DNA from: an uncultured Candidatus Saccharibacteria bacterium | GTDB lineage: Bacteria > Patescibacteriota > Saccharimonadia > CAILAD01 > GCA-016700035 | NCBI GenBank assembly: GCA_964583675.1 | Contig: CAZOVH010000001.1 | Coordinates: 81,754 to 145,753 of the forward strand | Direction: 5' to 3' | Length of the DNA stretch: 64,000 bases | The notes under the pieces: generated by a model | Database searches by the model: none | What the model saw: only the letters and a program-made list of their open reading frames with translations | Told to the model about the DNA's origin: nothing | Program-made: the position numbers and the translations under genes | Shown: piece after piece, positions 587 to 34,254 of the stretch | Numbering within the stretch: position 1 is the first letter of the stretch | Layout: each line of letters begins with the position of its first letter

Positions 587-656
587 ATATGGTTACAGTA
601 TACAAAAATGAAAAACGGCCGGGCATAAAGCCCGACCGGTGATCTCACCTAAGAGA

Positions 657-1313
657 TCACAAGAAGGTGGCGTGGGCCTCGGCCCATTGGAGTGCCTCCG
701 TAGCTCGATCACGCCCACGCAGAAGCTCTCGACGCAACGTGGGTGGCAACTCAGTATCGCCCCAGAAATAGTTCCAGGATCGATCAGTGGGATTCACCCA
801 CAGCAAACGGTGCATATGCTTGCGCTCGCCAGCCCGGAACCAAGCCGCAGGCTCAACACCAATCTTGGTGTAGCCCGCTGACAACAGTGCCTTGATGCTG
901 GCCGTATTACCGAACAACACCTCCGACTCAATCGCCATCAGGTCCAAAACATGGACAGCGTAATAGCAACGCGCCCGATGCGCAGACTTGGCAATCTTCT
1001 TCCCCCACATATCGCGGCGAAAAATGAGACTACCAGAACTGTAACGACTCGGCTTCTCATGAAGCGAAGTGATGCCGATCGGCTCCCCTTCGAAGCGAAG
1101 CGACCACATCACAGAACCGGCATCAGTGCGACACCTCTCGAACCACTCATCCTCGTCTCGCTCGGTCTGCGCCGAAGGCAAGCCCAGCGTACGGGCAAGT
1201 TCGTAGCTCTGCATGCCAGCCGCAATCTTAGCGGAGTCCGAGGCCTGCAAAGGCTCCATGGTAAACTCCAGCCCGTCATCGGTTGTAACACGCATCGAAA
1301 AGCCAAAAGCCAT
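657..1313 (-). CDS. GNAT (RimJ/RimL-like) N-acetyltransferase, high-GC
   Basis: 218-aa ORF with GNAT motif B-like NTASIKALLSAGYTKIGV. SD AAGGAGAAAG lies upstream of the ATG. Local GC is clearly above the flanks. Confidence 0.55.
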   Translation of the reverse strand: MAFGFSMRVTTDDGLEFTMEPLQASDSAKIAAGMQSYELARTLGLPSAQTERDEDEWFERCRTDAGSVMWSLRFEGEPIGITSLHEKPSRYSSGSLIFRRDMWGKKIAKSAHRARCYYAVHVLDLMAIESEVLFGNTASIKALLSAGYTKIGVEPAAWFRAGERKHMHRLLWVNPTDRSWNYFWGDTELPPTLRRELLRGRDRATEALQWAEAHATFL

Positions 1314-1656
1314 GACTTTCTCCTTCTTGTACTAGGTTCACTCGACGAGAGGGTTCTCGTCGAGCAATTGATCTCCGAAATGCGCTTAATGTAAATTCTT
1401 AATTTTCGATATAAAAAAGCCTCCTTTCGGAGGCCAATTACTCGAAAAGAATGAGATTTACTCGAGTACCAGACCTCCTGGAATTGTGCGTACAGCAACA
1501 TGCCCAGCTGATTTCGCATCAGCCGAGAAAGTTGGGTGTTCGATCATGTAATCGAGTAATCTATTCATAATATCTTTATTAAAACACTAATGTTAATTAT
1601 TGTCAACAAATTAACTGAAATATGTTATGCTTTCTATATATTAAGGGGACATAACT

Positions 1657-2235
1657 TTGCCGAGCATACATAAGCCACTGTTTTTAATAACCGGCAGTTC
1701 GGGTGTTGGGAAAAATGCTGTTATTGCCGAGTTGGTGCGTCAGCACCCCACCCTAGCTCAAGTTATCAGCGTAACTACCCGCTGGCCAGCTAGGGCTCAA
1801 GAGAAATTTGCTGAGCACTACTTTTTTGTCGACAATGAGCGGTTTGCCTGGCTTGAAGAAACCAATCAGTTAGTCGAAAGTACCTTTGTGTATGGCGATC
1901 ACTACGGCACATTGGCTTTTTCGCTCGATCACACGATTGCAAGCGGCAAAACACCAATCCTCACCGTCGACCCCAAAGGTGTTGAGAACTACCGCCAGCT
2001 TGGCTATACCGTAAAGGTAATCTTCTTAGATTTTCCAGATGCGCGAACACAAAAAGATCGCATCATAAAACGCCAACCCAATATTAGCCCCGAAGAACTC
2101 GACGAGCGTCTGGCCGAAGCCGCTCAAGAGCGCGCTTGGGCCAATACTCAAGCGCAAACTCCAGATTTTGCCGTGGTGGTTAACGATAAACTCGGTGCCT
2201 GTGTACAAGACGCCGCCCGAGCTTTGGATTTATAA
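1657..2235 (+). CDS. gmk: guanylate kinase
   Basis: 192 aa with a P-loop GSSGVGK and a guanylate kinase-like core (TTR, YFFV, YGT). Apparent TTG start. Confidence 0.8.
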   Translation: MPSIHKPLFLITGSSGVGKNAVIAELVRQHPTLAQVISVTTRWPARAQEKFAEHYFFVDNERFAWLEETNQLVESTFVYGDHYGTLAFSLDHTIASGKTPILTVDPKGVENYRQLGYTVKVIFLDFPDARTQKDRIIKRQPNISPEELDERLAEAAQERAWANTQAQTPDFAVVVNDKLGACVQDAARALDL

Positions 2236-2340
2236 GGTTATCTTTTAAGCTAATTTCCAGCTAAGTTCGCGTTATAATAGGGCTTGCTGGATTGCATTCT
2301 TGGCCGAATTATTCTAAGCTACTCCAGTTCTTAAAAAACT

Positions 2341-3726
2341 ATGCAAAAATCACCTAAACCAGATTTTATCTATGATCCAGTTCGGGACAAGCGGCACAAT
2401 CTGAAACGAGTCGCCGGTCGCCCGAAAAAGCCAATGGCGCGCTGGAAAAAAGTTCTTATTTTTATTGGTTGCTGCCTCGCGCTCGGCCTGGTTGCTTTTG
2501 GTATTTTTACGTTTACTAACATTGCAAAAATCGCACCAAATTTCTTCAAGTTTGAAACTAAACTAAAAGGCGAAGATGAAGGCCGTGTTAATATTCTCCT
2601 CATCGGCACCGGCGACCCTGGTCACGATGGTGAAGGGCTTGCTGACACCAATATTTTGGTCAGTGTAAATACCCGCGAAAATAAGCTCGCCATGGTCTCC
2701 ATTCCGCGTGATACACGCGTAAAAATTGATGGGCATGGTAGTAAAAAGATTAATGAAGCACACGCATATGGTGATATCCCGCTGGCCACCGATACCGTCG
2801 AAAACTTTTTAGATGTACCGGTCCACTATTACGTGCGTGCCAACTTCACTGGACTCAAACAAGCCGTAGATGCAGTTGGCGGCATAGAGATAGACAACAA
2901 ACAATTGCTCTACGATCCAGAATATCCATGCGATAAAAACCAATGGAAGAGTTGCGGTTTTAAGCTACAGCCAGGTAAGCAAAAAGTAGACGGCACGACT
3001 GCGCTCAAATACGCCCGCTGCCGCAAGGGTACCTGTGGCGATGACTTTGGTCGGGCCGCTCGTCAGCAAGAAGTTATTACTGCCATTCGCACCAAAGCTA
3101 TGAGCACCGAAACTATTTTGAACCCAGCAAAACTGACGGCACTCATTCAAACGGCCGGCGACAATGTAAAAACAGACCTTTCCGTACAGGGCATGCTACG
3201 CCTCAATGACCTCACAAAAGACATCCCTAACGATCAAATCGTCAATGCCGTGTTCTCGCTGGAGCCAAACGGATTTCTTAAGCCTGACCCAGCAGGCTCG
3301 AGCGACCTCCTGCCAATCGATACCACGCTCACCTCTATTCAAACCTTTGTAAAAGACATCTTTAAGCTTGGCCCTATATGGAAAGAGAATGCCACTATCG
3401 TCATCCAAAATGGTACAGCCACAGCTTCACTCGGCGGCAAACTCGAGGCTAAGCTCGAAAAAGAAAAGCTACCTTTCACCATCACGCAGGTAACCAATGC
3501 CTTAAAGCGAGACTATACAACAACCCAAATTATCGACTATACCGGTGGCACAAAAAATAACACCAAGTCTTATCTTGAGGGTGTACTCAAAGTAACTGCC
3601 ACCACACCAGAAAAAGAAGTGAAGAATCCACCTCAAGATTTTGTCATTATTATTGGCTCAGACTACGGCAATTACCTACCAACGCCATCTCCGTCACCAA
3701 CAACTAATAGCTCCAGTCGTCGCTAA
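2341..3726 (+). CDS. LytR-CpsA-Psr (LCP) family cell-envelope polymer transferase
   Basis: 461 aa. N-terminal TM anchor, LCP core (NILLIGTGD, SIPRDT) and a C-terminal LytR_C-like domain. Confidence 0.75.
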   Translation: MQKSPKPDFIYDPVRDKRHNLKRVAGRPKKPMARWKKVLIFIGCCLALGLVAFGIFTFTNIAKIAPNFFKFETKLKGEDEGRVNILLIGTGDPGHDGEGLADTNILVSVNTRENKLAMVSIPRDTRVKIDGHGSKKINEAHAYGDIPLATDTVENFLDVPVHYYVRANFTGLKQAVDAVGGIEIDNKQLLYDPEYPCDKNQWKSCGFKLQPGKQKVDGTTALKYARCRKGTCGDDFGRAARQQEVITAIRTKAMSTETILNPAKLTALIQTAGDNVKTDLSVQGMLRLNDLTKDIPNDQIVNAVFSLEPNGFLKPDPAGSSDLLPIDTTLTSIQTFVKDIFKLGPIWKENATIVIQNGTATASLGGKLEAKLEKEKLPFTITQVTNALKRDYTTTQIIDYTGGTKNNTKSYLEGVLKVTATTPEKEVKNPPQDFVIIIGSDYGNYLPTPSPSPTTNSSSRR

Positions 3727-6314: not shown

Positions 6315-6378
6315 GTTTCAATTCTATCAGCCTATCAATAAAAATACCCCAGGAATCGAAACTCCTGAGGCTACGGCA

Positions 6379-6765
6379 CTAGGCCGATGCAAGGTTGCGC
6401 ATGCGTGCCCGAGCCTGATCGATGAGGTCGTAGATGCCAACACCACGTTCAGCGGCCACTTCGCGAATCAACGCACAGTTGTCATCGCTCAGCAGCTCAC
6501 CGTATTGTCTCAGCTGCATGTACACTTCGCTACCGAAGTCATCACGCAGCATCCACTGGTCGGTACTCGACGGATCACCCACAGGTCTGAGCTCAGCCTG
6601 CAGCAGTGTGTCCGGACCGAAGGATGCTCGGTTACCGAAATCATCGATCACCATGAGACACATATCTACAGAGCTGGACGCGTAGTAGAAAATCTCCGGA
6701 CAACAGCCTTCTTCGTGACAGAGCGTCATCAGATGACGGCGGGGTGCGGAATCAGCCTGAGACAT
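6379..6765 (-). CDS. hypothetical acidic protein (129 aa), second gene of a high-GC two-gene operon
   Basis: ATG at 6765 overlaps the upstream TGA (TGACATG) with a GGAG motif just upstream. Diverse composition (MSQADSAPRRHLMTLCHEEGCCPEIFYY...). GC about 60%. Confidence 0.45.
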   Translation of the reverse strand: MSQADSAPRRHLMTLCHEEGCCPEIFYYASSSVDMCLMVIDDFGNRASFGPDTLLQAELRPVGDPSSTDQWMLRDDFGSEVYMQLRQYGELLSDDNCALIREVAAERGVGIYDLIDQARARMRNLASA

Positions 6766-6766
6766 G

Positions 6767-9677: not shown

Positions 9678-10079
9678 ATGCAATCCAGCAAGAACATTCG
9701 ACGTGCAACGATCCTCGCGATCGTGAGCCTGGGCGCTGTTGTGCTCGCCAGCTGCACGCCGGAGCAGATCGCGCTTGCCAGGCGCATCCACATGGAGCGT
9801 CTGGCAGTGCAGAACCACCCGTTCCTGACGTGTGTGCGCCATCACGAGTCAGATCGTGGCCCTGCGCCCCACACCAACGGGTATGGCGAAGACAATCCAC
9901 GTAGCTCTGCATCTGGAGCCTACCAGTTTCTGGACTCCACCTGGCAGAACGTGTCTGTGCGATCTGGCCACGGCGGCTATGCTCGCGCCAAGGACGCACC
10001 CTGGTTCACCCAGGATGCCGTCGCCATGTGGACGCTTCGAAACGTCGGCACTTCCCCTTGGGCCGGCACTGGCTGCTAA
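9678..10079 (+). CDS. Rpf-like (transglycosylase-like domain) lipoprotein, high-GC
   Basis: Lipobox VLASC. C..HESDRG...NGYGEDN..SGAYQFLDSTW resembles the Transglycosylase-like (Rpf) domain. GC about 63%. Hairpin plus SD GGAG upstream. Confidence 0.5.
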   Translation: MQSSKNIRRATILAIVSLGAVVLASCTPEQIALARRIHMERLAVQNHPFLTCVRHHESDRGPAPHTNGYGEDNPRSSASGAYQFLDSTWQNVSVRSGHGGYARAKDAPWFTQDAVAMWTLRNVGTSPWAGTGC

Positions 10080-12986: not shown

Positions 12987-14078
12987 CTAGGCCGCAGCCT
13001 TTTTGGTACAACCAACATCGACAAACGTGTCCAAGCGAATCAGTGGATACCGACTCACCTCAGACTGTTTGCTGATAGGAGTTCGCGCCAAGTGACAGGG
13101 CTGAAGCACTAGCACCACTTCTGCGCCATACCGCTGCAAGCGCTCTGCAAGCACCAGGTGATTGCGATAGTCATTGCCCACCAGGTAGACAACGGCTGGC
13201 AGCTTTGGATCGCGCTTAGGATCTGGCTTAACCTGACAGCGCGTCCAATCCGAGAGGATGTCGTCCACGTCGCCAATTCGATGCAATTCTTCGCGCTGGA
13301 CAGCCAGTGCCTTGCGCACACGGTGTGCCCGATCTATGAGTTGCACAGTCGGCACCACATACGGATCAGCCTGGACGTCACGTTCCCTACCAGGCCAATC
13401 GAGCTGGCTAGCGTAGGCCACTGCCAAATGCTCGCGCACTCGCTGAATGTACTCGGCTTGCCCCCGCTCAGCGAGCGAAATGTTTGACCAAGCACTGATC
13501 AGCAACTTTTCGAGCCAACTACGTGACTTCTTGAAACGAGTAAGCCGCGCCAAAAGAGGCAACACCACGCGCAACACCATCCTTGTGGGAAGGCTGTAGT
13601 GAATGGCGTACACCTTGGTGAGCGTGCGGGCCGACTCTCGAAGCGTTGACACTGCCGTGTCGGCAATGCAATCACACTGAGCATCACGGGAGGCATCGAG
13701 CTCACGAAGAGCGCGCTTCACCTCACCAATCGCTTGATAGCCACGCGTGCCGAGAGCCTCATCTAGGCCTCGCGACACAGCTACAAGATCGGACGGATAA
13801 TCGGCTGGTGGCTTGGTGAAAACCTTCCAACCAGAGCCCGTGAGCATGCTCTCAAAACGAACACGCCCCTCGGTTGGATCGTCCTGACCATGTGACTGCA
13901 GAAAAACTGCCGCCTTCGCCTTAAAGTCGTCAGTGCCGAGGCGCGTACGCGCGTCTTCCAACAGAGCGGCCTTCAGGGCGAAGTGGTCCAGCTTGGCCTC
14001 GCGACCAAAAAGCTTCCCCATCGTTACGAGGACATTGGGGCCATCAACCGCGATGATTGCTTGAGCGCGCATATTCAC
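12987..14078 (-). CDS. NYN/PIN-like domain protein (N-terminal predicted RNase domain, unknown C-terminal), high-GC
   Basis: 363 aa. N-terminus [19 protein letters not shown] resembles the NYN (LabA-like) domain. GC about 60%. Confidence 0.45.
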
Positions 14079-15586: not shown

Positions 15587-16000
15587 GTGCCCACACGGAC
15601 CATGACCCTCACGGAATGGCAGAACGAAGCTCGGCGGCGCACCGACTCGGTGATGAGAGGCGGACGAGCCAAGCCACTCGCCCTCCTCAACGTGCATGTC
15701 GAGAACAACCCAGAGCCTTGGCAGGCTCTGTGCTCGAAGGCCATCACGTTTGCCACCGCCTGCTTCAGGCAGCTCCAGCTGGGCTACGGCGAGGTGAACG
15801 GCACCACGCACTCCCGGCTGGGCAAGATGGTGCGCTACATCGACTCGCGTGCCGAGGACTGGCGCGGTGAGGCTGCCGAGCAGTACCGCGAGCTCCGCCA
15901 ACTGATCGGCGAGGTCGATCCCGAAGCGCTCCCCGGGCGCGACGAGATGGACCGGCAGCACCAGCTGCAGGACTGCGATCCGGCCGTGGCCATCGCCTGA
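15587..16000 (+). CDS. hypothetical protein (137 aa), high-GC island
   Basis: GTG start with SD GAGGTGG 5 nt upstream. Diverse composition. The antisense ORF 15443..16084 has Leu/Gly/Arg-rich junk composition. Confidence 0.5.
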   Translation: MPTRTMTLTEWQNEARRRTDSVMRGGRAKPLALLNVHVENNPEPWQALCSKAITFATACFRQLQLGYGEVNGTTHSRLGKMVRYIDSRAEDWRGEAAEQYRELRQLIGEVDPEALPGRDEMDRQHQLQDCDPAVAIA

Positions 16001-16016
16001 CCAAGAGGGTCTCACA

Positions 16017-16053
16017 CCCCGGTAGACAACGACGTCTACCGGGGTTTCGCTTG
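16017..16053 (+). terminator. intrinsic terminator (ccccggtagac-aacgac-gtctaccgggg + TTTCGCTTGTT)
   Basis: 11-bp GC stem plus a T-rich tail, 17 nt after the stop of the 15587..16000 gene. Confidence 0.55.
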
Positions 16054-16061
16054 TTGCAGTT

Positions 16062-16105
16062 TTACTAAAAAGAATAACCTCCAACGGGATAGGACCGTTG
16101 GAGGT
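16062..16105 (-). terminator. intrinsic terminator for the minus-strand operon (cctccaacgg-gatagga-ccgttggagg + U-run on minus)
   Basis: 10-bp stem. On the minus strand it is followed by TTATTCTTTTT, downstream of ORF 16126..16392. Confidence 0.45.
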
Positions 16106-16125
16106 CGGTGTAGATTTGTCCGGTT

Positions 16126-16392
16126 CTACTTCCGGTTGCGCGAGGGCTTGGGCGGATGCTTCCGCCTGTCCTGATGTGCCCAGGGGTGACGCACCTCACC
16201 GGGCTGGTAGTAGCACCAGCTGGAAGACCGCACCGACTTGGAGACTCGTGCCTCCGGGTCGGACAACTCGCTCCCCGTGCAGGACAGCTCATCGGAGCCA
16301 TCACGAGGACCCGCGAGGCCGGCCAGGTCGTAGTAGTCCTGCTCGAACTCGTCAGGCTCGGTGGCGGCAGGTCGGATCATGGTCTTGGGCAT
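16126..16392 (-). CDS. hypothetical acidic protein (88 aa), high-GC island
   Basis: SD AAGGGGGAAAG 4 nt upstream of the ATG. The N-terminal half is acidic (EPDEFEQDYYD). Confidence 0.4.
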   Translation of the reverse strand: MPKTMIRPAATEPDEFEQDYYDLAGLAGPRDGSDELSCTGSELSDPEARVSKSVRSSSWCYYQPGEVRHPWAHQDRRKHPPKPSRNRK

Positions 16393-16414
16393 TACTTTCC
16401 CCCTTGTGGGTCTA

Positions 16415-16903
16415 TCAGACGGCGGTCAGGACGGGCAGGTCGGCGTGCACCGGCACAGAGTCGGCGACAAGCAGCTTGGGCTGCTCAGCCACACGCTCGA
16501 TCATGGTGACGACGTCTCGGTAGACATCCATCTGCTGCCGCGTGAAGGGCACACGGCAGCGCATCAACGGCGCGATGAAGCGCCAGTTGTCGTCGTGCTG
16601 CAGCAACGTTCGCTGCTCGAGCTCGGCGTAGGACATCTGGGTGCGATACGTGTCGATCACATCGACGCGAGTTAGCACCCACTCGAACATGTCGTCCACG
16701 GAGACAAGCTCCGGACGAGTCTGTCCGTAGGCATCGAGCATGGCCACGATGGCACCGATGCCTCGCTGGCGATCGGTGTGATTCCCATCGCGCTGCAGCC
16801 AGCAGGACACATCGTTGCCGCGCGGCTCGACACCCTGATGCCGGACGAGTCGGAAGCGATGATCACGCAGGCCCTCCTCGAGGAAAGTCCAGAGCGTGTT
16901 CAT
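16415..16903 (-). CDS. hypothetical protein (about 163 aa; ORF open up to 17074), high-GC island
   Basis: ATG at 16903 (MNTLWTFLEEGLRDHRF...). Diverse composition. The start is uncertain. Confidence 0.4.
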   Translation of the reverse strand: MNTLWTFLEEGLRDHRFRLVRHQGVEPRGNDVSCWLQRDGNHTDRQRGIGAIVAMLDAYGQTRPELVSVDDMFEWVLTRVDVIDTYRTQMSYAELEQRTLLQHDDNWRFIAPLMRCRVPFTRQQMDVYRDVVTMIERVAEQPKLLVADSVPVHADLPVLTAV

Positions 16904-17198
16904 GTACCGACCGTTGACGTCAGGGTCCGTCAAGATGGCGGGGATGCGGGGGGATGGCGGAAGATTCACAGGGCTCCTGGGTTGATTGAAGGTGCGGGGA
17001 CAAAAAGAGAACGTATCGCGCGACACTGATGTGTTGCGGTATGCGCCCTCCCACAGAGTTCGTGTTTTCCTCACAAACTATCTGGGAGAGGACAAAGTGT
17101 TTGGATTGAGCCCGAGGGGCCGGAAGCAGGCGCAAGAGGCGCCCTTGTGGTCGAACCACAGCTCCGGCCCCTCAGCCACGCCCCAGCGAGTCAGAGGA

Positions 17199-18161
17199 TC
17201 ACTTCCTCTTCTTGGCCTTGGCGGTTCCGGCCACGGGCTTGCCGCGGACGGCAGCCTGCCCGGGGACACCCTGGGGGTTCGGCTTGCCCACCTTGATGCG
17301 GGCGTGCTTCTCCTCCCAGGTCGGACCCTGGGGCTGCGGAGCCGGCTTGGGCCCCTTGGCCTCGGACTCAGCGCGACGCGCCTCGGCCGCCTCTTCGCGA
17401 CGAGCCTGGCTCACCGACTGGGTGGCGTGGAGACTGGGCTCCAGGTTCTCCAGCACCGTCAGCAGACCACGCAAGGTGTCAGCCGGCAGCGTCTCAAGAC
17501 GCCGCAGCTGCTTCTGGCGGTTGGTCGGCATACGGTCGCTGAACCACTGAGTGTAGTCACCGCGGCCATCCTGGGTGAGGACGTGCATGATCTCCTTGCG
17601 GACACCATCCTCCTCGAGACGGATGGCCTCGAAACGGGCCTGTTCGGCGGCGCGGCTCTCGGCACGCTCGGCGTCGAGCTGGTCCATCGCGGCGCGGCCA
17701 GCCGGGGTGGGCTGGAAGTGCGGCGCGTAGGACAGAGCTGTGCGGACGACCTCGGTGTCGTCGTCGGTCAAGCCGACGTAGACCTCGATGTCGAGCTCCT
17801 CGTCGCCGGAGCTGACGCGGCCGTTGTTGATGGCCTGCGCGAAGCTCCGGGCGCGAGCCCTCTCCTTCACCGACAAGCCGTTCAGCCAGTCGGTGAAGAT
17901 CTCGGGCTTGTACTTGGCCACGAGGTCCTCGAACTTGTAGACGTTGTTGAGCGCGCCCTCGAGCTCCTCCCGGCTGCCGTTGAGGGCAGCCTGGAGCTCG
18001 TTCTTGAGGCGCGCCACCATCTTGTCCTGGTGGAACTCGCTGTCGAGGATGGCCTGAGCCAACTTGGCCAGGTGCGGCGTGGTCGCCTCGCTCCACTTGA
18101 ACTGGCGCGGGATGATCGGGGTGAACACGGGGGTCGGGTTGGTGGTCTCAGTCATGGTCAT
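17199..18161 (-). CDS. hypothetical protein (320 aa) with Lys/Ala/Pro-rich basic C-terminal tail, high-GC island
   Basis: ATG at 18161 with SD AGGAGGG upstream (MTMTETTNPTPV...). The C-terminus is ...KPVAGTAKAKKRK. The antisense 398-aa ORF is junk-like. Confidence 0.55.
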   Translation of the reverse strand: MTMTETTNPTPVFTPIIPRQFKWSEATTPHLAKLAQAILDSEFHQDKMVARLKNELQAALNGSREELEGALNNVYKFEDLVAKYKPEIFTDWLNGLSVKERARARSFAQAINNGRVSSGDEELDIEVYVGLTDDDTEVVRTALSYAPHFQPTPAGRAAMDQLDAERAESRAAEQARFEAIRLEEDGVRKEIMHVLTQDGRGDYTQWFSDRMPTNRQKQLRRLETLPADTLRGLLTVLENLEPSLHATQSVSQARREEAAEARRAESEAKGPKPAPQPQGPTWEEKHARIKVGKPNPQGVPGQAAVRGKPVAGTAKAKKRK

Positions 18162-19401: not shown

Positions 19402-19920
19402 ATGAAGCACGTCGATCCAACCGAGTTGCCGCTCAAGTTCCGGCGAGATACGCGAACTATTCGAGAGCTCATCGACCAGGCCGAGCAGCATGCAGGAACC
19501 GGAGAACACGCAGCGGCACTACAGGCGTACAAAGACGCCTATCGCGAGAGTCGCCAACTTCCCGATCGAGATCTAGAGATCGAGATTGCGCTACTGATGG
19601 CGCGCTATCAGTTCGAACGCGGCCATCTCGATGCAGCGCAAGACTGGCTGGCTACGCACTGCATCCTGCTTGCAAGTGAAGTTGGCTTGCAGGATGGCAT
19701 GACAATCACTGGCAACAGTACCGTCATCAACTTTGTCGCCACCGCCAGCCTGCACGAGCCAGGAGCCGACACAATCAAGGTGTATCGCAAGTTCTCAGAC
19801 ACCTGGAAGAATCCCTTCGTACTCGAAGCAATGGCCGACGAAGGCCTTCCATTCGGCACGCAATTTCTGCCTGCGAAGACGCTGCTCCTTGCGATTCGTA
19901 CAGCATCAACCCCAGAGTGA
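19402..19920 (+). CDS. hypothetical protein (172 aa), GC-elevated
   Basis: ATG with an upstream GGGAG. The stop lies in the loop of an intrinsic terminator. Confidence 0.45.
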   Translation: MKHVDPTELPLKFRRDTRTIRELIDQAEQHAGTGEHAAALQAYKDAYRESRQLPDRDLEIEIALLMARYQFERGHLDAAQDWLATHCILLASEVGLQDGMTITGNSTVINFVATASLHEPGADTIKVYRKFSDTWKNPFVLEAMADEGLPFGTQFLPAKTLLLAIRTASTPE

Positions 19921-19936
19921 TCTGGGGTTTTATTTA
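19909..19936 (+). terminator. intrinsic terminator (accccaga-gtga-tctggggt + TTTTATTT)
   Basis: 8-bp stem plus a T-run directly at the gene end. Confidence 0.5.
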
Positions 19937-19998
19937 CATCTTTTAATTTTTATTGTAAAATATAATCTATTCGTACCTCCTACTGAATCGAGAAAAGC

Positions 19999-20667
19999 AT
20001 GGATAGATATCTGGAAGCCTTCGATGCCGCCGAGCAGGCTCGCATCCAGGGCGACAACGCGAAAGCAGTGCTGCTCTATGAAGAAGCTGCCAGCCTCGCA
20101 GAGTACAGTTCTGCTGCCGACCCTGTCACTCTCCACCACATGTGGGGTGTGGTCCTCACAAGTCTTGGTCAACATGAAGAGGCAGACGAACACTTCGCAG
20201 ATGCGTTGCTTCTCACAGATGACCCTACCAAGGTCAGGGCGATCAATCGCGATGGTAGTCGAGTAGCACTCCTGAGAGGCGACTTTGGTGTTGCCCATGA
20301 GCTCATCGACTACGCCATGGGTGAACCAACGGACGACATTGCAGAGCGCGGAGCCAGCATGGGCTTCAAGGCTCGTATCTTGCTCGCAGAGGACAAGCCC
20401 GAAGAAGCGCTCGAGATTTTCGGCATGGCCGATGTTCTTCTGCAGCGCAGTGACAACCGCCACTATGAGCTCTACAACCTCATGCACTTCCTGGAGGCGC
20501 TAGTGGAATATCGGCTCCCCCTCTTCGAAGACAACTGGGCAGAGATTCAGTTCGCAAGAGACCAAGTGTCACGACTTCGAGCACTGGCGATGAACTATGG
20601 CGGCCTGCCCCATCAACAGCGTGCCGCGAACATCATCAGCAGCGTCCTTGCCGAGCGCGAAGGCTGA
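19999..20667 (+). CDS. hypothetical helical-repeat (TPR-like) protein (222 aa), GC-elevated
   Basis: Ala/Glu/Leu-rich helical repeats and a strong terminator downstream. Confidence 0.45.
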   Translation: MDRYLEAFDAAEQARIQGDNAKAVLLYEEAASLAEYSSAADPVTLHHMWGVVLTSLGQHEEADEHFADALLLTDDPTKVRAINRDGSRVALLRGDFGVAHELIDYAMGEPTDDIAERGASMGFKARILLAEDKPEEALEIFGMADVLLQRSDNRHYELYNLMHFLEALVEYRLPLFEDNWAEIQFARDQVSRLRALAMNYGGLPHQQRAANIISSVLAEREG

Positions 20668-22830: not shown

Positions 22831-23652
22831 CTACATGGTGGACTGTAGTACGCGCGCGAGTTCGCGCCCCTTCTCGATAGCCATCTGCCAATCGCGCTGC
22901 ATGGCTCGGGCAACCACTCGATCGCCACCCATGTAATTCTCTGGATGGATCGGCTCCATCACCACAGCAGCTGCACATGAGCGGCGGAGAAAGCGCGTGC
23001 GACGATGCTCATCAGCCTTGCCCACGCCGTAGATGGCAAGCGGCACCAACGGAACATTGGCCCGAAGAGCGGCGTACATTGCGCCCAGCTTGGCGTCGGA
23101 AAGGTCGTCGTCATCACGACGCGTACCCTGCGGATACAGCACCACCGGCTGGCCGCGGAGCAATGCGCGGTGAACAACATCCTTCATCTCGTCCTTCGTG
23201 TAGGTGAACTTCTGATACTCTGGGTGCTTTGCCCAGTCCACATCACGCATGAACGGAATACAGCCCTGAGGCTGGTTCAGCCACTTCAGCCACGTCCAAC
23301 GAACAAAGTCTGGCTTCGAGGGCCAGGCCATCGGTCGCGGGATGAAGCCCGTCAGTGGAATGTCCAGCATGTGCTGGTGATTGGGCGCCACCACAAACGG
23401 GTAATCACTGATGTGACTATCGCCCTTGCGACGATATCGCGGCGGGTAATAAGTTGGTGATGGCTGTGGCAGTTGGTGCGAGCCGTGAATCTTCCCCTTC
23501 ATGCGTGTTGCCGCTACCATCAGAATCAATCGACGAAAGACCCTGTGGCCAAACCACGGACCGACACCGTTGGCGTTGCGCAGGCCCCTGAGGCGCTTTG
23601 CCTCGGCCTGCGGCGACAGAACGGGGATATCGGCTGACTGCGCCTGACTCAT
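22831..23652 (-). CDS. lysophospholipid (1-acyl-sn-glycerol-3-phosphate) acyltransferase-like, PlsC family, high-GC
   Basis: HX4D motif NHQHMLD. ATG at 23652 with SD GGGGA. GC about 60%. Confidence 0.55.
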   Translation of the reverse strand: MSQAQSADIPVLSPQAEAKRLRGLRNANGVGPWFGHRVFRRLILMVAATRMKGKIHGSHQLPQPSPTYYPPRYRRKGDSHISDYPFVVAPNHQHMLDIPLTGFIPRPMAWPSKPDFVRWTWLKWLNQPQGCIPFMRDVDWAKHPEYQKFTYTKDEMKDVVHRALLRGQPVVLYPQGTRRDDDDLSDAKLGAMYAALRANVPLVPLAIYGVGKADEHRRTRFLRRSCAAAVVMEPIHPENYMGGDRVVARAMQRDWQMAIEKGRELARVLQSTM

Positions 23653-23782: not shown

Positions 23783-24370
23783 TCAGCCGCCGTAGTTGTC
23801 CTTGTCGGCGACGGATGTGGGAGATGAACCCGTGTTGTACACCAGCACCGGCTGGGTGGTCAGGTCCAGCGGGGCGTCGGCCAGCACGTACTCGCCGGGC
23901 CACTGGATCATCACACCGTCGGTGGTGAAGAAGAAGATGGCATCCTCCGAGGGACCCCAGGTGCCGTCGTCCATCGGCGCTTCGATGCCGATGAGCGACT
24001 TGCAGCCCGAGCCGCAGGAGTCGACGAGCTGGGTCGCTGTCGTCATCTGCGAGGAGGTGTTGCTCACCTTGCCCTTCACGGTGTAGTTGGCCATCAGCTG
24101 ACCCTGATCCGAGAACAGGTAGATGTAGCTGATCTTGTTCGGATCCGAGTAGCGGATGTGGCGCTCACGCAAGTTCATGCGCTCCAGCCAGCCGCCTTCC
24201 TCCATCTCTTCGAGGGGGTACGGGACGGCCTTCTCGGCGGCCTGGCTGTACTCCTCGGTGATGTTCTGGCTCTTCTCCTGCGTGGATGCCTCGTCTTCGC
24301 CGCTGCACGAGGCAGCGATGAGCACGAAGGGCAGGAAGAGCAGGATGAGGTACTTCTTGTACTTGGTCAT
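23783..24370 (-). CDS. lipoprotein (195 aa), high-GC
   Basis: Signal peptide and lipobox LIAASC. No recognisable domain. Confidence 0.5.
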   Translation of the reverse strand: MTKYKKYLILLFLPFVLIAASCSGEDEASTQEKSQNITEEYSQAAEKAVPYPLEEMEEGGWLERMNLRERHIRYSDPNKISYIYLFSDQGQLMANYTVKGKVSNTSSQMTTATQLVDSCGSGCKSLIGIEAPMDDGTWGPSEDAIFFFTTDGVMIQWPGEYVLADAPLDLTTQPVLVYNTGSSPTSVADKDNYGG

Positions 24371-24389
24371 GGTTGTCTTTCTTGCTGAT

Positions 24390-24414
24390 GGGAGGGGGTT
24401 CGAAACCCCCTCCC
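24390..24414. other. GC-rich hairpin (gggagggggtt-cgaa-accccctccc) in the 5' leader of the lipoprotein gene
   Basis: 10-bp G/C stem between ORFs 24447.. and 23783... There is no U-tract on either strand. Confidence 0.4.
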
Positions 24415-24446
24415 GGAGTGGTTGTTGAGTGGAGCTTGAAGTACGA

Positions 24447-24974
24447 TCAGGCTGCCGGCTGGCAGTCCGTCTCGCTGATGGTCGACATGGAGTCGATCTG
24501 ATACGGCAGGTCCGGGGACCGCCACTCGGCGCGGATGGTCTTCCGAGCTTCGGCGTTGTAGCTCGCGACGGCGTCCTGACAGATCTGCTGGAGACCGGTC
24601 ACCGTCGTCTGCTTACCCTTGAGTTGCTGTGTGTAGAGCTGCACCTGCACCAAGTCCGAGCTGGAGGGCTGCGGGTTGGTGGCGATGAACTCGTTCAGAT
24701 CGGCCTGTGCTTCGGTCAACTTGAGGTCCTGCGCCTTGATGGTGGCGTAGGTGTCCTCGAAGAAGGCCTGGGCACTGATCCGGTTGTCGGCATCATTGCG
24801 CTGCTGTACGATCTCGCCGGAGCCGCGCACGCCACTGGTGGCGACGCTGATGCCCCAGCCAGCGACTGACAGGATGATGACGGCCGCAATGAGGACCCAG
24901 ATCCACGTCTTGACGCGGCGAGGGGTCCATCGATTGATCTCGTCGTCCCACTTCTCTTCGATGGTTTTGGACAT
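24447..24974 (-). CDS. membrane-anchored hypothetical protein (176 aa), high-GC
   Basis: ATG at 24974 (MSKTIEEKWDDEINRWTPRRVKTWIWVLIAAVIILSVAGWG...) with SD GGGAG. One N-terminal TM. Confidence 0.5.
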   Translation of the reverse strand: MSKTIEEKWDDEINRWTPRRVKTWIWVLIAAVIILSVAGWGISVATSGVRGSGEIVQQRNDADNRISAQAFFEDTYATIKAQDLKLTEAQADLNEFIATNPQPSSSDLVQVQLYTQQLKGKQTTVTGLQQICQDAVASYNAEARKTIRAEWRSPDLPYQIDSMSTISETDCQPAA

Positions 24975-29534: not shown

Positions 29535-29634
29535 GCTCCGTATTATACCGGTTTGACCCCTGTAAGATACATTGACTAAATAATTACTAAGTTGTATTAT
29601 ATGCGAACCTGCACCTATCCAAGAAAGGTTCCTG

Positions 29635-30486
29635 ATGACAACTGTCAGCATGGAAAAGTTCCTCACCAGCTACCCCACACGACAAGAAGCGCTCGACACG
29701 CTCGGTCTCGGTGACCTATTCGAATTCATCGATGCCGTCGACGTACATGAGGACTCATCGGCCGCCGACAAACTGGCCGAGACAGCTACGCTCGCAAAGA
29801 GTGAGCATGGCATCCGAGACATGTGGGCCTGGCTACAGCGAAACTTCGGCCTGTCACACAGCCGTGTCAACCAGATCATCACACGCCAGCCGGTCGTACA
29901 TCTGCAACATCACCTACGGCATGCCACGTCGCCGAGTCTGCGTCCGGGCTACCGCTTCAACCAGCTGTGCTACGCCTGGAGCATCTTGCACGATGTGCCC
30001 GAAGGATTCTTGTACGGCGACAACTTCCAGATGATGCGCGAGCGCTTCGACTCGACACTCCAGCAATACCTGGAAGATGCCGTGACCCCCGAGCTGTTCT
30101 GGCTGTGCTTCCACGCCAGCCAGGATGAGCTTCTGCATGACATGCTGCGCAAGCAAGCGGCTGTTCATGCCAGGCGTGTTCTCGAAGAATACACGGAGTC
30201 ACTAGAGGAACTCTGGCTTCTTGATCCGCTACAGCACGAACCCACCTCCATCTGGGACCACACCCTTGAGGACGCAGACACACCGGCAGAAGACGTCGAC
30301 GACAGCCCTGATGCAAGCAACGATCTGGAAGCACTCGACGTCGCACTGACTGAAGGTCCGTTCGATGATGAAGATGACTCCACCAATGGTGGGCCGATCA
30401 GTGCCGAAGCCATGGACGATGAAGACGCCTTCGAAGTGTCGATTCGCAAGCATTACGGCAAGCAAGCCGCTGACCTGCTCTTTTAG
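29635..30486 (+). CDS. hypothetical acidic protein (283 aa), high-GC
   Basis: Asp/Glu-rich C-terminus and a conserved-style terminator downstream. Confidence 0.45.
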   Translation: MTTVSMEKFLTSYPTRQEALDTLGLGDLFEFIDAVDVHEDSSAADKLAETATLAKSEHGIRDMWAWLQRNFGLSHSRVNQIITRQPVVHLQHHLRHATSPSLRPGYRFNQLCYAWSILHDVPEGFLYGDNFQMMRERFDSTLQQYLEDAVTPELFWLCFHASQDELLHDMLRKQAAVHARRVLEEYTESLEELWLLDPLQHEPTSIWDHTLEDADTPAEDVDDSPDASNDLEALDVALTEGPFDDEDDSTNGGPISAEAMDDEDAFEVSIRKHYGKQAADLLF

Positions 30487-30494
30487 AGCACCCA

Positions 30495-30525
30495 CCCCGA
30501 CTTTCCCTGGTCGGGGTATTTCTTT
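30495..30525 (+). terminator. intrinsic terminator (ccccgac-tttccctg-gtcgggg + TATTTCTTT)
   Basis: Stem plus a T-run. Motif CACCCACCCCGA...TCGGGGTATTT..TTACTAA shared with 20674..20702. Confidence 0.55.
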
Positions 30526-30586
30526 ACTAATACCTAATTAAGTTATATAATTTACCTGTTATAGCACCCTATCCGAAACGAGCAAT

Positions 30587-31078
30587 ATGTCCACCGACGA
30601 CATTCGCTTCCGCCCCATTCGTTGCGGGGCTGGTCACACTCACTCCGTATTCGAACACAGCCGCGCAATTCAGCAGGCCGTTTTCGTGGAAGAGCAAGAC
30701 GTTCGTCCCGAAAAGGTGTTCGAGCACCAGCACGAAGCCACGCATTACGTCTGCTACATTCTTACAGATGACACCTGGCTGCCGGTTGCTTGCGCCAGAG
30801 TCCGGCAGTTCCAGGCCGATCGGTCCATCAAGATCGAGCGTGTTGCCACCCTCAAGGAATTCCGAGGCAACAAGTACGCACACCGACTCCTGGAGTACAT
30901 CATCCAGGAGCAGGGCGAGCGCTACCAGCCGCCGTTCTTCTTTCTGAACTCCCAAGAAGCAGCTGTCGGACTGTACTTGACGCTGAATTTTGCGTCCAAG
31001 GGTGACATCTTCAACGAAGAGGGTATCCGTCACGTTCGCATGGAGCTCGAATGGCCGCTTGCCACAGCCGCAGCCTAG
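30587..31078 (+). CDS. GNAT family N-acetyltransferase
   Basis: 163 aa with an acetyl-CoA binding motif region (FRGNKYAHRLLEY). Confidence 0.55.
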   Translation: MSTDDIRFRPIRCGAGHTHSVFEHSRAIQQAVFVEEQDVRPEKVFEHQHEATHYVCYILTDDTWLPVACARVRQFQADRSIKIERVATLKEFRGNKYAHRLLEYIIQEQGERYQPPFFFLNSQEAAVGLYLTLNFASKGDIFNEEGIRHVRMELEWPLATAAA

Positions 31079-31110
31079 CCCCCTACCCTCGCCTCGCGCG
31101 AGGGTCTTTT

Positions 31111-32073: not shown

Positions 32074-32173
32074 AGTTTTATTGTATACCAAAGTATAGTC
32101 CAACTTATATTGCTAAATTAGTAAAAAAATTGTATGATATAGCAATTCTTGCACCTCAAAGAAAGGCTTCACC

Positions 32174-32461
32174 ATGGGTGGACTCAGTCCCAACCTCACT
32201 CTCGAGGGCGATGCGCCCAACATCTACCACACCGATGGGAGAGGCAGGCCGCTTGATGTCAGCGGAACAGCTGATGTGCCACAACCAATCCCCGGCCGTT
32301 ACGACCCCTACAACGACAGGTTCGACCCTGAGGTCTTCGACACAAGCATGGTGGTAGCTCTGACGCTCGCCAGCATCGCGCTGGTCGTCGGCATCATCGG
32401 CGCCATCGTGACCGTGCCGATCACCATCGTGCGTCGCCTCCGTCGGAGGAAGTCATCATGA
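32174..32461 (+). CDS. hypothetical C-terminally anchored membrane protein (95 aa), high-GC
   Basis: Pro/Asp-rich N-terminus and a single C-terminal TM followed by RRLRRRKSS. Confidence 0.35.
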   Translation: MGGLSPNLTLEGDAPNIYHTDGRGRPLDVSGTADVPQPIPGRYDPYNDRFDPEVFDTSMVVALTLASIALVVGIIGAIVTVPITIVRRLRRRKSS

Positions 32462-32510
32462 TCAACCGGCGCTGGATCGCTGAGTAACCGTAAAACCCCA
32501 CCCTCCCCAA

Positions 32511-33119
32511 TCAGGAGAGTGGGGCATTTTTATGCCGCGAGTGCAGCATGGCTTGAAAGTTCGCAACCGACATTCGGAGTGCGAGCGAAGTACGTGGCAG
32601 TCCATTGAGTGGCGGTCGCACCCGGTGTCGAATGCGCGGATCACTGGCTCGATCCGGCTCACATCCCAATAGCACCATCGCACTCCCAGCCGAAACTCGC
32701 CAAGACACGATCCGTCCATGCAGCTCAACATCAATCACCGACTCACCTGCCAGCGTATAGACCACCACCAAGTAGACATCTTGCTTATAATCTCGGTGCC
32801 AGCCAATCATGTCCCAAGGCTTGATGTAGCGCTGCATCGCTACATCATTCACTCGCCATTCGCGCAGCCACGCTGGACCACCGCGCGCATGAATGGTGCG
32901 CGCAACAGATTCGGTACGCTCAACCAGCCACTCCAAGGCACTTGGCAGCGGCTCTGCAAAATGATGAGTCGTAAAGGACTGATACACGCCGCTCGGCCGT
33001 GGTCGATGGACCTCAGCCTCATCGCAGAACTGCAATAGTTCTGCGCACGTCGCTGCGGTGAGAATACCTGGATACACAACGCATCCCTGCAGCATTGCTG
33101 TGAGAATGGCCGAATACAT
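32511..33119 (-). CDS. putative Fe(II)/2-oxoglutarate-dependent oxygenase-like protein, high-GC
   Basis: H-x-D...H...R-x-S spacing (WHRDYKQD ... HG ... RHRV). ATG at 33119 with SD GGGAG. In-frame extension to 33179 is possible. Confidence 0.35.
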   Translation of the reverse strand: MYSAILTAMLQGCVVYPGILTAATCAELLQFCDEAEVHRPRPSGVYQSFTTHHFAEPLPSALEWLVERTESVARTIHARGGPAWLREWRVNDVAMQRYIKPWDMIGWHRDYKQDVYLVVVYTLAGESVIDVELHGRIVSWRVSAGSAMVLLGCEPDRASDPRIRHRVRPPLNGLPRTSLALRMSVANFQAMLHSRHKNAPLS

Positions 33120-33129
33120 GTGCTCCCAA

Positions 33130-33384
33130 TCAATCTCCAGTTGCTGCATCGTCGCTCTCCTCTCTAAGAAAGCTCCCAAATAGCTGACGATCTTTCACAT
33201 CGTGACACCGCTCGTGCGCCAAGTAGTTTATGCTCTGCTCTCCATTGCGGAACAAAACAGTCGCAACTGCGCGCTGACGCTGCTGCACCAAGTGACAGCA
33301 ATGCTCACAAACATGATGATGTGCCAACGGAAATGGGCACAGCCATTCGCCTCGAAAATCGTGACCGACAAGACACAACGCCAT
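33130..33384 (-). CDS. small Cys/His-rich protein (84 aa), high-GC
   Basis: HHHVCEHCCH cluster. The stop is 10 nt before the start of the 32511..33119 gene. Confidence 0.35.
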   Translation of the reverse strand: MALCLVGHDFRGEWLCPFPLAHHHVCEHCCHLVQQRQRAVATVLFRNGEQSINYLAHERCHDVKDRQLFGSFLREESDDAATGD

Positions 33385-33624
33385 TGTTGCCTCCCTTTTT
33401 GTAGGTACACCCGGAACAAAGAACTGCCCGGGCGGGCAGTTTTCTTGGGTTTACTTTGGTGAGTTCAGTACTTTCAAAAACGCTGGCCGCTCGGTCAGTT
33501 TAGGCTATAGTCCATCATGGACGACCAGGTTGTGTGGCGCTTTGAAAGTAACATTACTTTTATGATACCAAAGCGAACAGAAAAAGAAAACCGCACCCGA
33601 ATAATCGGATGCGGGGAGCTCTAC

Positions 33625-34065
33625 TCAGCAAAACTGAGCCGGATTAAGGGCAGCAAGAACAATTCGTGCCTGGCGGCCTGAGGCTATCACGGTGGTTCGA
33701 GTCGGCAAGCGCGCATGCGAGATAGGCGTAAAGGCCACCTGCCCAACATGCAGACGAGATGCACACACACCACCTCTAACCTGCGTCTGAATATCCGCAA
33801 CTCCAGACACAACCAAAACTGCATGATGACCAAGAAAGTGCTGCGGCAGTACGAGCTCGCCTCCACTCTCCAGGGTGAATTCTTCTACAAAGTTAAAGTC
33901 ATGCCGGCAAAGAGGCTGTTCGCGAAGCAACCTCTCGGGGCGAGAGGCAACAGCTTGCAAGCGCATAGGCGACATCGTGACTTTCTCCACGACATGCAAA
34001 GAGTCGACAGCGGCCGCAAAGACCTTTGGCTCTCGGTTTTGAACAAATCCAGGTGTACGAGTCAT
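33625..34065 (-). CDS. cupin domain protein
   Basis: GGELVLPQHFLGHHAVLVVSG, a cupin motif with the H-x-H...E...H pattern. Confidence 0.5.
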   Translation of the reverse strand: MTRTPGFVQNREPKVFAAAVDSLHVVEKVTMSPMRLQAVASRPERLLREQPLCRHDFNFVEEFTLESGGELVLPQHFLGHHAVLVVSGVADIQTQVRGGVCASRLHVGQVAFTPISHARLPTRTTVIASGRQARIVLAALNPAQFC

Positions 34066-34254
34066 TACTACTCCAATGATAAAGGTACGAGGGGACGCTC
34101 AGAGAAGATCAAAAAAGACCGCCTGAGCGGTCAATTTTGCAAGTTTCTAGTCGCTAGTTAGCGCAAACCTGGCCGCTCGTGCCGTCGAGTGCCATAAAAA
34201 TACCAAGTGTTTGCGTTGCGTAATTGCATGATGGCCTGTATTATTCCATAGATT

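Follow-up and report, generated by a model that had tools for sequence, protein, structure and literature searches.

GC-rich cassettes at conserved positions of a Saccharibacteria genome as a candidate accessory compartment of mixed origins

A 64,000-nucleotide stretch of the genome of an uncultured Candidatus Saccharibacteria bacterium (contig CAZOVH010000001.1), hereafter referred to as the window, carries nine short GC-rich patches, or islands, between positions 640 and 34070. We lean, with modest confidence, toward the interpretation that these patches form an accessory compartment of the Saccharibacteria that occupies fixed slots, has mixed origins and is kept GC-rich by its mode of evolution. 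In such a compartment, cassettes of one to four lineage-restricted, fast-evolving, functional genes would be lodged between conserved syntenic housekeeping genes, and each cassette would be expressed from its own predicted promoter of native type. The gene for an Rpf-like lipoprotein would have come from high-GC Actinobacteria or their phages, a pair encoding a membrane protein and a lipoprotein would represent a phage/plasmid module, the acetyltransferase GNAT1 would derive from a family with a Patescibacteria member, and the remaining families appear to be confined to this clade. Most cassettes would have been in place before the genera of the clade diverged. The island loci would act as hot spots of allele replacement and recombination, with a stronger AT-to-GC bias in their substitutions than the core shows. 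Recombination-associated GC-biased fixation would then act on initially GC-rich input, with the most extreme GC-rich genes slowly losing GC.

The mean GC content of the window is 49.8%. Its profile was computed in 400-nt sliding windows, GC at third codon positions (GC3) was computed separately for each gene, and genes were called from public contigs identical to the window together with our own open reading frame (ORF) analysis. An initial annotation, made from the letters of the window, had placed nine intervals of 58–65% GC in the backbone. All nine rise above the backbone level of 44–51%; the range of 58–65% is reached at 9.6–10.1, 15.6–18.2 and 22.8–25.1 kb, and the other intervals peak at 53–59%. 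Mean GC3 is 0.69 in island genes (0.50–0.90, n=20) versus 0.47 in backbone genes (0.37–0.55, n=23; Mann-Whitney p=9e-8), and it is at third codon positions that the difference is strongest. The excess is restricted to coding sequence, and the spacers in and bordering the islands have a GC content of 0.28–0.59, like backbone spacers. From 35 to 64 kb the window is flat at 38–53% GC, with the exception of a tRNA cluster at 41.1–42.1 kb. As the initial annotation proposed, predicted sigma-70-like consensus promoters lie 5' of individual island genes and predicted hairpin terminators 3' of them, with 18 promoter-like sites observed against 8.3+/-2.8 in shuffled sequences. No island protein matches an integrase, recombinase or transposase in Pfam, NCBIfam or PHROGs, and PHROGs and NCBIfam gave nothing useful for the island proteins in general. 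The islands are not flanked by att-like direct repeats, only short internal chance repeats being found, and a tRNA gene, tRNA-Ser(GGA) at 12808–12897, is adjacent to island 4 at the 5' side alone. Thus, of the features of classical genomic islands, atypical composition is present, and an integrase and an att/tRNA-3' insertion are absent. The genes of the islands are as follows, with the GC content of each interval in 400-nt windows given in brackets.

Island 1 (640–1330, GC 0.56–0.57): 657..1313, minus strand, GNAT1, a RimJ/RimL-like acetyltransferase (Acetyltransf_3, Pfam E=7e-12), GC 0.57, GC3 0.65.
Island 2 (6350–7250, GC 0.53–0.56): 6767–7225 (152 aa) and 6379–6765 (128 aa), minus strand, two translationally coupled genes, GC 0.55–0.56, GC3 0.58–0.61.
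Island 3 (9500–10130, GC 0.58–0.605): 9678..10079, plus strand, small Rpf/transglycosylase-like lipoprotein of 133 aa with lipobox LASC, GC 0.62, GC3 0.71.
Island 4 (12990–14100, GC 0.53–0.59): 12987..14072, minus strand, predicted split NYN-fold protein of 361 aa with a helical insert of ~190 aa, GC 0.57.
Island 5 (15560–18190, GC 0.605–0.685): 15587..18161, both strands, four genes as called on identical contigs, GC 0.63–0.67, GC3 0.81–0.89.
15587–16000, plus strand: i5a.
16126–16392, minus strand: i5b.
16415–16969, minus strand: i5c.
17199–18161, minus strand: i5d, with a Lys/Ala-rich basic tail.
Island 6 (19400–20670, GC 0.50–0.57): 19402..20667, plus strand, two TPR-like helical proteins of 172 and 222 aa (TPR1 and TPR2; weak TPR matches), GC 0.56–0.57.
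Island 7a (7a and 7b together 22830–25120, GC 0.56–0.625): 22831..23652, minus strand, PlsC-like lysophospholipid acyltransferase of 273 aa (PF01553, E=8e-17), GC 0.60, GC3 0.69.
Island 7b: 23783..24974, minus strand, a membrane protein (24447–24974) followed by a lipoprotein (23783–24370), GC3 0.85–0.90.
Island 8 (29600–31080, GC 0.52–0.59): 29635..31078, plus strand, an acidic protein of 283 aa and GNAT2 of 163 aa (Acetyltransf_10, Pfam), GC 0.57.
Island 9 (32130–34070, GC 0.55–0.60 up to ~33.0 kb and 0.50–0.545 beyond): solid part 32174..33179, both strands, two genes that are also called on sister contigs.
32174–32461, plus strand: small tail-anchored protein of island 9, GC3 0.73.
32511–33179, minus strand: 222-aa protein of island 9, named 'oxy' here, GC3 0.57.

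That the organism might belong to the Saccharibacteria had been raised at the outset, and its nearest species-level reference is indeed a Candidatus Saccharibacteria metagenome-assembled genome (L001; GroEL 78% identical, 45% GC). This was the sole useful locus obtained with GroEL as bait, the other 79 of 80 loci belonging to Firmicutes and other unrelated phyla. Further relatives were retrieved through the PGI, PlsC-like and Rpf-like proteins, and ~21 kb was read per relative. The backbone of the window encodes HhH-GPD glycosylase, Gmk, LytR, MgsA, MsrB, M3 peptidase, PGI, GroES/EL, PGM, two FemAB proteins, TsaD and ValRS. The interleaving of islands with housekeeping genes seen at the outset holds, the extra genes being wedged between syntenic core genes. 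L001 is collinear with the window in the order ValRS-TsaD-FemAB-FemAB-PGM-NTase-GroES-GroEL...PGI, and it has gaps of only ~80, 230 and 290 bp at the slots of islands 9, 8 and 7, the slot of island 8 lying between the two FemAB genes.

Closer relatives share both backbone and islands. In a complete 916-kb genome (L088, CP064998.1) and a 701-kb contig (L093), backbone proteins are 72–97% identical to those of the window (59–64% for GDPD and DinB), with GroEL at 97% and PGI at 86–88%. More distant relatives have PGI at 74–78% (L084 and L085) and 69% (L097) and GroEL at 79% (L090); GDPD and DinB of L097 are only 37% identical. Same-slot island proteins are 23–76% identical across relatives in which backbone proteins are 49–97% identical. 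Island GC3 is above that of the own backbone in each relative genome with homologues: it is 0.53–0.74 versus 0.38–0.47 in L088 and L093, L097 carries islands 3, 4 and 5 at the same slots with a GC content of 0.57–0.64 versus 0.48–0.53, and L084, L085 and L090 agree with this pattern. Islands 3–6 and the PlsC-like gene are syntenic across the clade (PGI identity ~62–88%, backbone proteins 62–97% identical). Their presence at the same slots with elevated GC in such divergent genomes argues that they are older than the divergence of these genera. In the sister genomes, presence is sporadic for the membrane protein and lipoprotein pair, for islands 1 and 2, which are absent from L097, and for islands 7–9, which are absent from L001. 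Islands 1, 2, 8 and 9 and the 7b pair have a narrower distribution.

The mosaic does not stem from a single assembly. Contigs 100% identical to the window over 11.6–18.9 kb were assembled independently from SRR13208889 and SRR13208906, and related strains that carry the islands, 95–99% identical, are found in JGI, ENA and other Logan samples, three further strains among them. Therefore, the mosaic is biological. An assembly chimera in which high-GC reads were mixed into a Candidate Phyla Radiation (CPR) contig is ruled out by these assemblies and strains, and its probability is negligible; the same arrangement is also present in the complete 916-kb genome, and purifying selection acts on island genes within the population.

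Four co-specific strains were aligned over 12.6–29.6 kb (17 kb). In segments of 500 bp they diverge by 0–39% in a strongly mosaic pattern, and the grouping of strains, including which strain is closest to the window, changes along the alignment. Divergence peaks inside the genes for the NYN-like protein, i5b, TPR1/2 and the acidic protein. Island 6 is hypervariable, with 17–39% nucleotide divergence between otherwise near-identical strains. The ratio of nonsynonymous to synonymous divergence (dN/dS) is 0.09–0.38 for the seven genes of NYN, i5c, i5d, TPR1, TPR2, PlsC and the lipoprotein, where measurable (NYN 0.11–0.13, i5c 0.09–0.14, i5d 0.34–0.38, the TPR genes of island 6 0.16–0.28). It is 0.01–0.06 for most backbone genes and 0.13 for tm69. 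These seven are real genes under relaxed or diversifying selection. For i5a and i5b, dN/dS is 0.74 and ~1, respectively, and they are doubtful or very fast genes. At 16000–16500, the i5b allele of the window differs by ~17% from three co-specific strains, which are near-identical to each other (0–0.2%), and the ORF encodes 88 aa in the window and 75 aa in the other strains; i5b is a small gene of very high variability or no gene at all. Strain L099 matches the window at 98.8% identity over 16.4–29.6 kb and at only 80.8% over 30486–32466 (GNAT2-FemAB2-tail), and therefore the core gene FemAB2 was also caught in allele replacement. The acidic protein of island 8 differs in length among strains as well (234 versus 283 aa).

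Substitution polarity was determined at third positions from singleton differences polarised by the majority of the other strains. The backbone shows 124 GC-to-AT (S>W) and 137 AT-to-GC (W>S) changes, with an implied equilibrium GC3 of 0.49 and a current GC3 of 0.47. The corresponding values are 104 and 82, 0.59 and 0.64 for the hypervariable island genes, and 35 and 15, 0.68 and 0.83 for the most GC-rich, low-diversity island genes. In this small sample, third positions of the islands have per-site W>S to S>W ratios of 2.1 and 1.4, versus 0.97 in the backbone. W>S changes in the islands exceed the prediction from the backbone rate ratio at p ~0.01 per island class by a hand calculation, and first and second positions of the islands are also W>S enriched.

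Island orthologues keep a GC3 of ~0.7–0.9 in lineages whose core proteins are only 62–88% identical. Under the theory of amelioration, synonymous sites are expected to be saturated at this level of core-protein identity. Therefore, the GC excess would not be a passive leftover alone. The most economical explanation would be a bias favouring GC at recombining loci, together with slow amelioration of the genes that are most extreme in GC. Biased gene conversion fits both the link with recombination and the surplus of W>S changes at the first two codon positions.

The Rpf-like lipoprotein of island 3 points to a foreign source. Its homologues carry PF06737, as the Rpf label given at the outset would suggest. 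The window protein itself scores 22 bits (E=2.7e-4), below the gathering cut-off of 27 bits, and differs from the PF06737 family in being a minimal 133-aa lipoprotein. It resembles that family in its secreted/lipoprotein context and in the conserved motif HPFLTCVRHHESDRG...ASGAYQF, and an HHESDRG motif is conserved as well. Among 171 homologues, many at 60–76% identity are precomputed as PF06737. Full-length copies of 133–136 aa are Saccharibacteria orthologues, and L093 (76%) and L097 (59%) carry the gene at the same slot. Proteins of 176–210 aa match the catalytic domain only, at 70–76% identity, level with the congeneric orthologue (77%); the few named ones belong to Microthrixaceae or an Actinomycetes bacterium, which agrees with the actinobacterial flavour noticed in the initial annotation. 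Two contigs encoding actinobacterial Rpf-domain proteins have a GC content of 70.5% and 71.8% and ordinary actinobacterial-type neighbours. The Rpf gene has a GC content of 0.59–0.62 in Saccharibacteria versus 0.72–0.74 in Actinobacteria.

Two further short copies (132–135 aa) with a lipoprotein-type N-terminus, 59–63% identical over the full length (71% for the domain of P0027), are encoded by phage-like contigs of 168–186 kb and 58–60% GC, directly downstream of an Amidase_2 endolysin. The architecture of the window protein is that of these endolysin-adjacent copies, not that of the 176–210 aa actinobacterial form. Both contigs (L187 and L188) also carry, on one strand, an N6/N4 methylase, NT5C, a peptide deformylase and an RF-1-domain gene, and they look like large phages. 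In a neighbour-joining tree of the 97-residue Rpf domain, long Saccharibacteria branches stand among short actinobacterial ones; the tree is unresolved and carries no support values, and therefore transfers are not countable from it. Amino-acid composition was uninformative as a taxon proxy for such short proteins. Sequence comparison gives good support to high-GC Actinobacteria or an actinophage as the probable source of the Rpf-like gene. The family also includes P0028, a 136-aa protein whose N-terminal 40 residues are almost identical to the window protein, and whose C-terminal third falls on a different branch of the family and groups with P0069. This suggests intragenic recombination between Rpf family members.

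The 7b pair has a mobile background of another kind. Its two genes are 33–37% identical (E down to 1e-28) to adjacent genes of Microbacterium, Arthrobacter and Curtobacterium phages; with Microbacterium phage Caron gp26/27 and Arthrobacter phage Raphaella gp72/73, the pair shares its gene order and 33–35% identity along the entire length. Overall, its nearest relatives are unassigned viral contigs of 57–59% GC (45–53%). An alignment-based scan of IMG/VR found the lipoprotein family on 78 contigs of 25–70% GC (best 53% identity), in 28 of which the membrane gene lies upstream; a scan of IMG/VR for close relatives with the lipoprotein alone found none. Homologues of the lipoprotein also reside on plasmids of seven distinct lineages, with hosts that include Firmicutes, Proteobacteria, haloarchaea, Deinococcus and one actinomycete. 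Because the module spans 25–70% GC and many phyla, it is not specifically actinobacterial, and the pair is a general phage/plasmid two-gene module rather than an actinobacterial marker. It resembles phage accessory ('moron'-type) pairs, in that the same two genes occur in the same order in early/DNA-metabolism regions of phages (those of Arthrobacter, Microbacterium and Curtobacterium and the 28 IMG/VR contigs). It differs from them in that the pair of the window resides on the chromosome, without further phage genes in its surroundings, and its family has no PHROG or Pfam entry. The pair is absent at this slot from L088 and L090. The adjacent PlsC-like gene, whose label holds by its match to PF01553, has only 14 homologues at 57–88% identity in a search of 5.8 billion proteins. 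In four contigs read for its homologues P0004 and P0007, it lies upstream of GroES in syntenic Saccharibacteria loci.

Exhaustive phmmer searches of 1.84 billion representatives with GNAT1, the NYN-like protein, i5d and 'oxy' gave ~11 clusters for NYN, ~6 for i5d and ~13 for 'oxy', and the traceable matches of these three are apparently on contigs that also bear clade homologues of the Rpf or PlsC-like proteins. GNAT1 has more than 100 representative clusters at 30–45% identity, one of which is a named Patescibacteria protein. A GNAT1 homologue (41% identity) at 4158–4808 of a CPR-like contig of 41% GC (L108) lies next to trmD/rpsP and is the GC-richest gene there (GC 0.53 versus 0.36–0.44, GC3 0.52 versus 0.28–0.44), and therefore the GC elevation follows the GNAT1 family to a different location. 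At the slot of island 1, L093 has a 32%-identical GNAT; L097 has none and its HhH-GPD and Gmk genes are adjacent. The second gene of island 2, an island whose proteins match neither Pfam nor PHROGs, is 45% identical to the gene of L093 at the same slot, where L097 has msrA instead.

The labels of both GNATs are backed by Pfam matches, and GNAT2 is only 29–38% identical to plasmid GNATs of unrelated phyla. The NYN-like protein has no Pfam match by sequence, and a PDB sequence-profile search gave only chance matches. Its label rests on the predicted fold: a single-sequence AlphaFold model (pLDDT 41) was discarded, and an AF2 model from an 11-sequence alignment (pLDDT 86) appears to match 2qip (probability 1.0, TM-target 0.70) and the Marf1 NYN domain 5yaa (probability 0.96) in Foldseek. 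Residues D10, N13, D268, D270 and D301 are invariant in the family, and orthologues of 29–46% identity occupy the same slot in L093, L088, L097 and L084. The island 5 proteins have no family, phage or plasmid match in Pfam, PHROGs and phage and plasmid libraries; same-slot homologues exist for i5a (65–69% in L093, L088 and L085), i5c (23–37%) and i5d (37% in L097), and the Lys/Ala-rich basic tail that had been described is that of i5d. TPR2 has orthologues of 53% (L088) and 30% (L090) identity. Island 9 had been drawn over 32130–34070 with oxygenase-like, Cys/His and cupin proteins. It is well founded up to ~33.0 kb; the calls at 33130–34065 are uncertain, the two rightmost ORFs having a GC3 of 0.50–0.51, and none of these three labels has a family match. 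The DinB neighbour is confirmed as DinB/MDMPI_N. The remaining island proteins give no phage, plasmid, PHROG or Pfam signal.

The initial annotation explained the islands by repeated host-to-symbiont capture. In its strict form, each island would be a separate and fairly recent capture from a high-GC actinobacterial host whose composition has not yet ameliorated. The Rpf-like gene speaks for such an origin by the 70–76% identity of its domain to Microthrixaceae/Actinomycetes proteins on contigs of 70–72% GC, as do the 7b pair, whose best matches in the annotated phage collection are actinophage genes (33–37%) and which is confined to this species and shows an S>W excess, and the ongoing loss of GC from the most GC-rich genes; transfers between Saccharimonadia and Actinomycetota have also been reported in activated sludge (bioRxiv 10.64898/2026.09.16.751625). 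However, islands 3–6 and the PlsC-like gene are syntenic and GC-elevated across genomes with 62–88% PGI identity, searches of 5.8 and 1.84 billion proteins found no actinobacterial homologue of the PlsC-like, NYN-like, i5d and 'oxy' proteins, and the relatives of GNAT1 include a Patescibacteria protein. Of the six proteins searched in large collections (Rpf-like, PlsC-like, GNAT1, NYN-like, i5d and 'oxy'), only the Rpf-like protein has its closest homologues outside the lineage in Actinobacteria, with equally close phage-like copies. Moreover, the lipoprotein module occurs at 25–70% GC in archaea, Firmicutes and Proteobacteria, integrase and att sites are lacking, and spacers and promoters are native-like. 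The proposal is therefore supported in part and retains its actinobacterial link for the Rpf-like gene; most islands are old, clade-specific and found at the same slots, and for most genes tested the closest homologues lie in the same CPR lineage. Recent capture is quite unlikely and, as a general account, largely refuted.

Alternatively, the islands could be passive relics of a few ancient acquisitions from high-GC donors by the clade ancestor, which are still ameliorating with no GC-favouring force. The surplus of S>W over W>S changes in the genes richest in GC (35:15), the lower GC of the Rpf gene in Saccharibacteria (0.59–0.62) than in Actinobacteria (0.72–0.74) and the native GC of the spacers would all follow. 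This model is nevertheless unlikely: orthologues keep a GC3 of ~0.7–0.9 where synonymous sites should be saturated, the implied equilibrium GC3 of the islands is 0.59–0.68 and not 0.49, and the hypervariable alleles are compositionally balanced (104:82). A different proposal takes the islands as the neutral composition of the genome and the core as AT-richer through translational or codon selection in conserved genes. It is consistent with the weaker constraint on islands (dN/dS 0.09–0.38 versus 0.01–0.06) and with the concentration of the GC difference at third positions. Intergenic DNA, however, has a GC content of 0.28–0.53 and is not GC-rich, and W>S changes are enriched at the first two codon positions of the islands too. 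In addition, DinB and GDPD, which are 64% and 59% identical to their L093 counterparts, have a GC3 of ~0.5, whereas the better conserved Rpf (76%) and i5a (68%) have a GC3 of 0.71–0.85, and therefore GC3 does not simply track constraint. We regard this proposal as very improbable.

Several points weigh against the accessory compartment that we favour. Biased gene conversion by itself does not explain AT-rich spacers; the spacers inside islands are not GC-rich, and a regional process would need to be offset by selection on promoters. That the genes richest in GC lose GC on balance (35 versus 15, p=0.007) is the outcome expected from plain amelioration. The polarity test covers four strains and 17 kb by a minority rule without an outgroup and with small counts, and the excess of W>S in islands rests on the hand calculation with p ~0.01 only. 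The absence of a detected donor is no proof that there was no donor: only the Rpf-like, PlsC-like, GNAT1, NYN-like, i5d and 'oxy' proteins were searched in large protein collections, the other island genes being compared only with Pfam, PHROGs and phage and plasmid libraries, and taxon names are attached to very few homologue matches. The neighbour-joining tree of the Rpf domain does not help here. A more specific form of the accessory compartment is a two-compartment genome, in which recombining genes for envelope and host interaction are held at a GC3 of 0.6–0.9 across genus-to-family divergence, with the core at ~0.47, by a GC-favouring fixation bias. The underlying process might be, for example, biased gene conversion at hot spots of allele exchange that DNA from Actinobacteria or phages had seeded. 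We put this form forward tentatively, as a possibility that may well prove wrong.

The islands share features with known systems. Lawrence & Ochman are said to have provided the framework of horizontally acquired islands and compositional amelioration. As in that framework, the window has atypical accessory genes between core genes, at least one identifiable foreign source, and a drift of the most atypical genes toward the composition of the host. Unlike classical islands, those of the window are GC-richer, not AT-richer, than the core, are tiny (1–4 genes), lack an integrase, a tRNA-3' target and att repeats, and mostly keep their positions from genus to genus; their implied equilibrium composition also remains above that of the core. 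Recombination-associated GC-biased gene conversion in bacteria was reportedly described by Lassalle et al. in 2015. The window would resemble it in that the loci where recombination and allele turnover peak appear to carry the highest GC3 and a pattern rich in W>S changes. In contrast, the GC3 gap of 0.2–0.4 is far above the few percent usually attributed to this process, and GC is not raised in the spacers. The study of Saccharimonadia-Actinomycetota transfer in activated sludge reports transfers at >99% nucleotide identity (the methods also give a >90% filter) with recombinases nearby (bioRxiv 10.64898/2026.09.16.751625). The phylum pairing is the same, the Rpf-like gene tying the clade to Microthrixaceae-type Actinobacteria, but the best link of the window has an amino-acid identity of 70–76%, is old and is common to several genera. 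Cultivated Saccharibacteria grow on Actinobacteria (PMC10633639). Among the papers of the library searched, none ties Saccharibacteria to genes of the resuscitation-promoting-factor type or to biased gene conversion. Compositional islands, amelioration and CPR-host gene exchange are already known; less usual are accessory genes of higher GC than the core that are tiny, lack integrases and keep their positions from one genus to the next. The islands appear to be near a separate compositional steady state.

Some additional observations concern the backbone and the nearest reference. The nucleotidyltransferase-domain gene at 25370–26536, counted as backbone, has a dN/dS of 0.46–0.51 and encodes 314, 371 or 388 aa among strains. 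In the GroEL-PGI slot of L001 (11379–14359), a TPR-like 266-aa protein, a 237-aa protein with a Lys/Ala-rich basic tail and a 292-aa protein lie in a local GC bump of 51–58% in the 45% GC contig; sequence comparison detects no similarity of these proteins to those of islands 5 and 6. The longest GDPD ORF (7827–8783) overlaps the DinB-like gene (7305–7961) by 135 nt, and the true GDPD start is probably downstream of the longest-ORF start, because the L093 orthologue is called at 251 aa. Very large ORFs (1004, 279, 305, 635, 1138 and 636 aa) run on the same strand from 49833 to 61990 at backbone GC. Two tRNA-like genes (41802–41875 and 42057–42134) are given four-base anticodons (ctta and gaaa) without amino-acid assignment by ARAGORN and score as tRNA in Rfam (54.6 and 43.2 bits); they may have enlarged anticodon loops or a wrong fold.

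The gene content of the islands, namely a predicted muramidase lipoprotein, an acyltransferase, a surface lipoprotein with its membrane partner, TPR proteins, GNATs and an NYN nuclease, suggests a likely role in the cell envelope or in interactions with the host or phages. These ~20 small, hypervariable genes under purifying selection are candidates for host or phage interaction. The predicted peptidoglycan-cleaving lipoprotein, common to Microthrixaceae-type Actinobacteria and to endolysin cassettes on phage-like contigs, forms a cross-phylum link and provides a testable clue to the host range of this uncultured clade of activated-sludge Saccharibacteria. The islands of the window, most of them old, caution against taking GC-rich patches in CPR genomes as fresh host-derived DNA. 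If the two-compartment organisation is true, GC-rich composition would mark an evolutionary regime, not recent transfer, and interaction genes in CPR genomes could be picked by composition alone. Should the GC-favouring regime extend over the whole genome, this clade would offer a natural setting in which to measure biased gene conversion in ultra-small bacteria.

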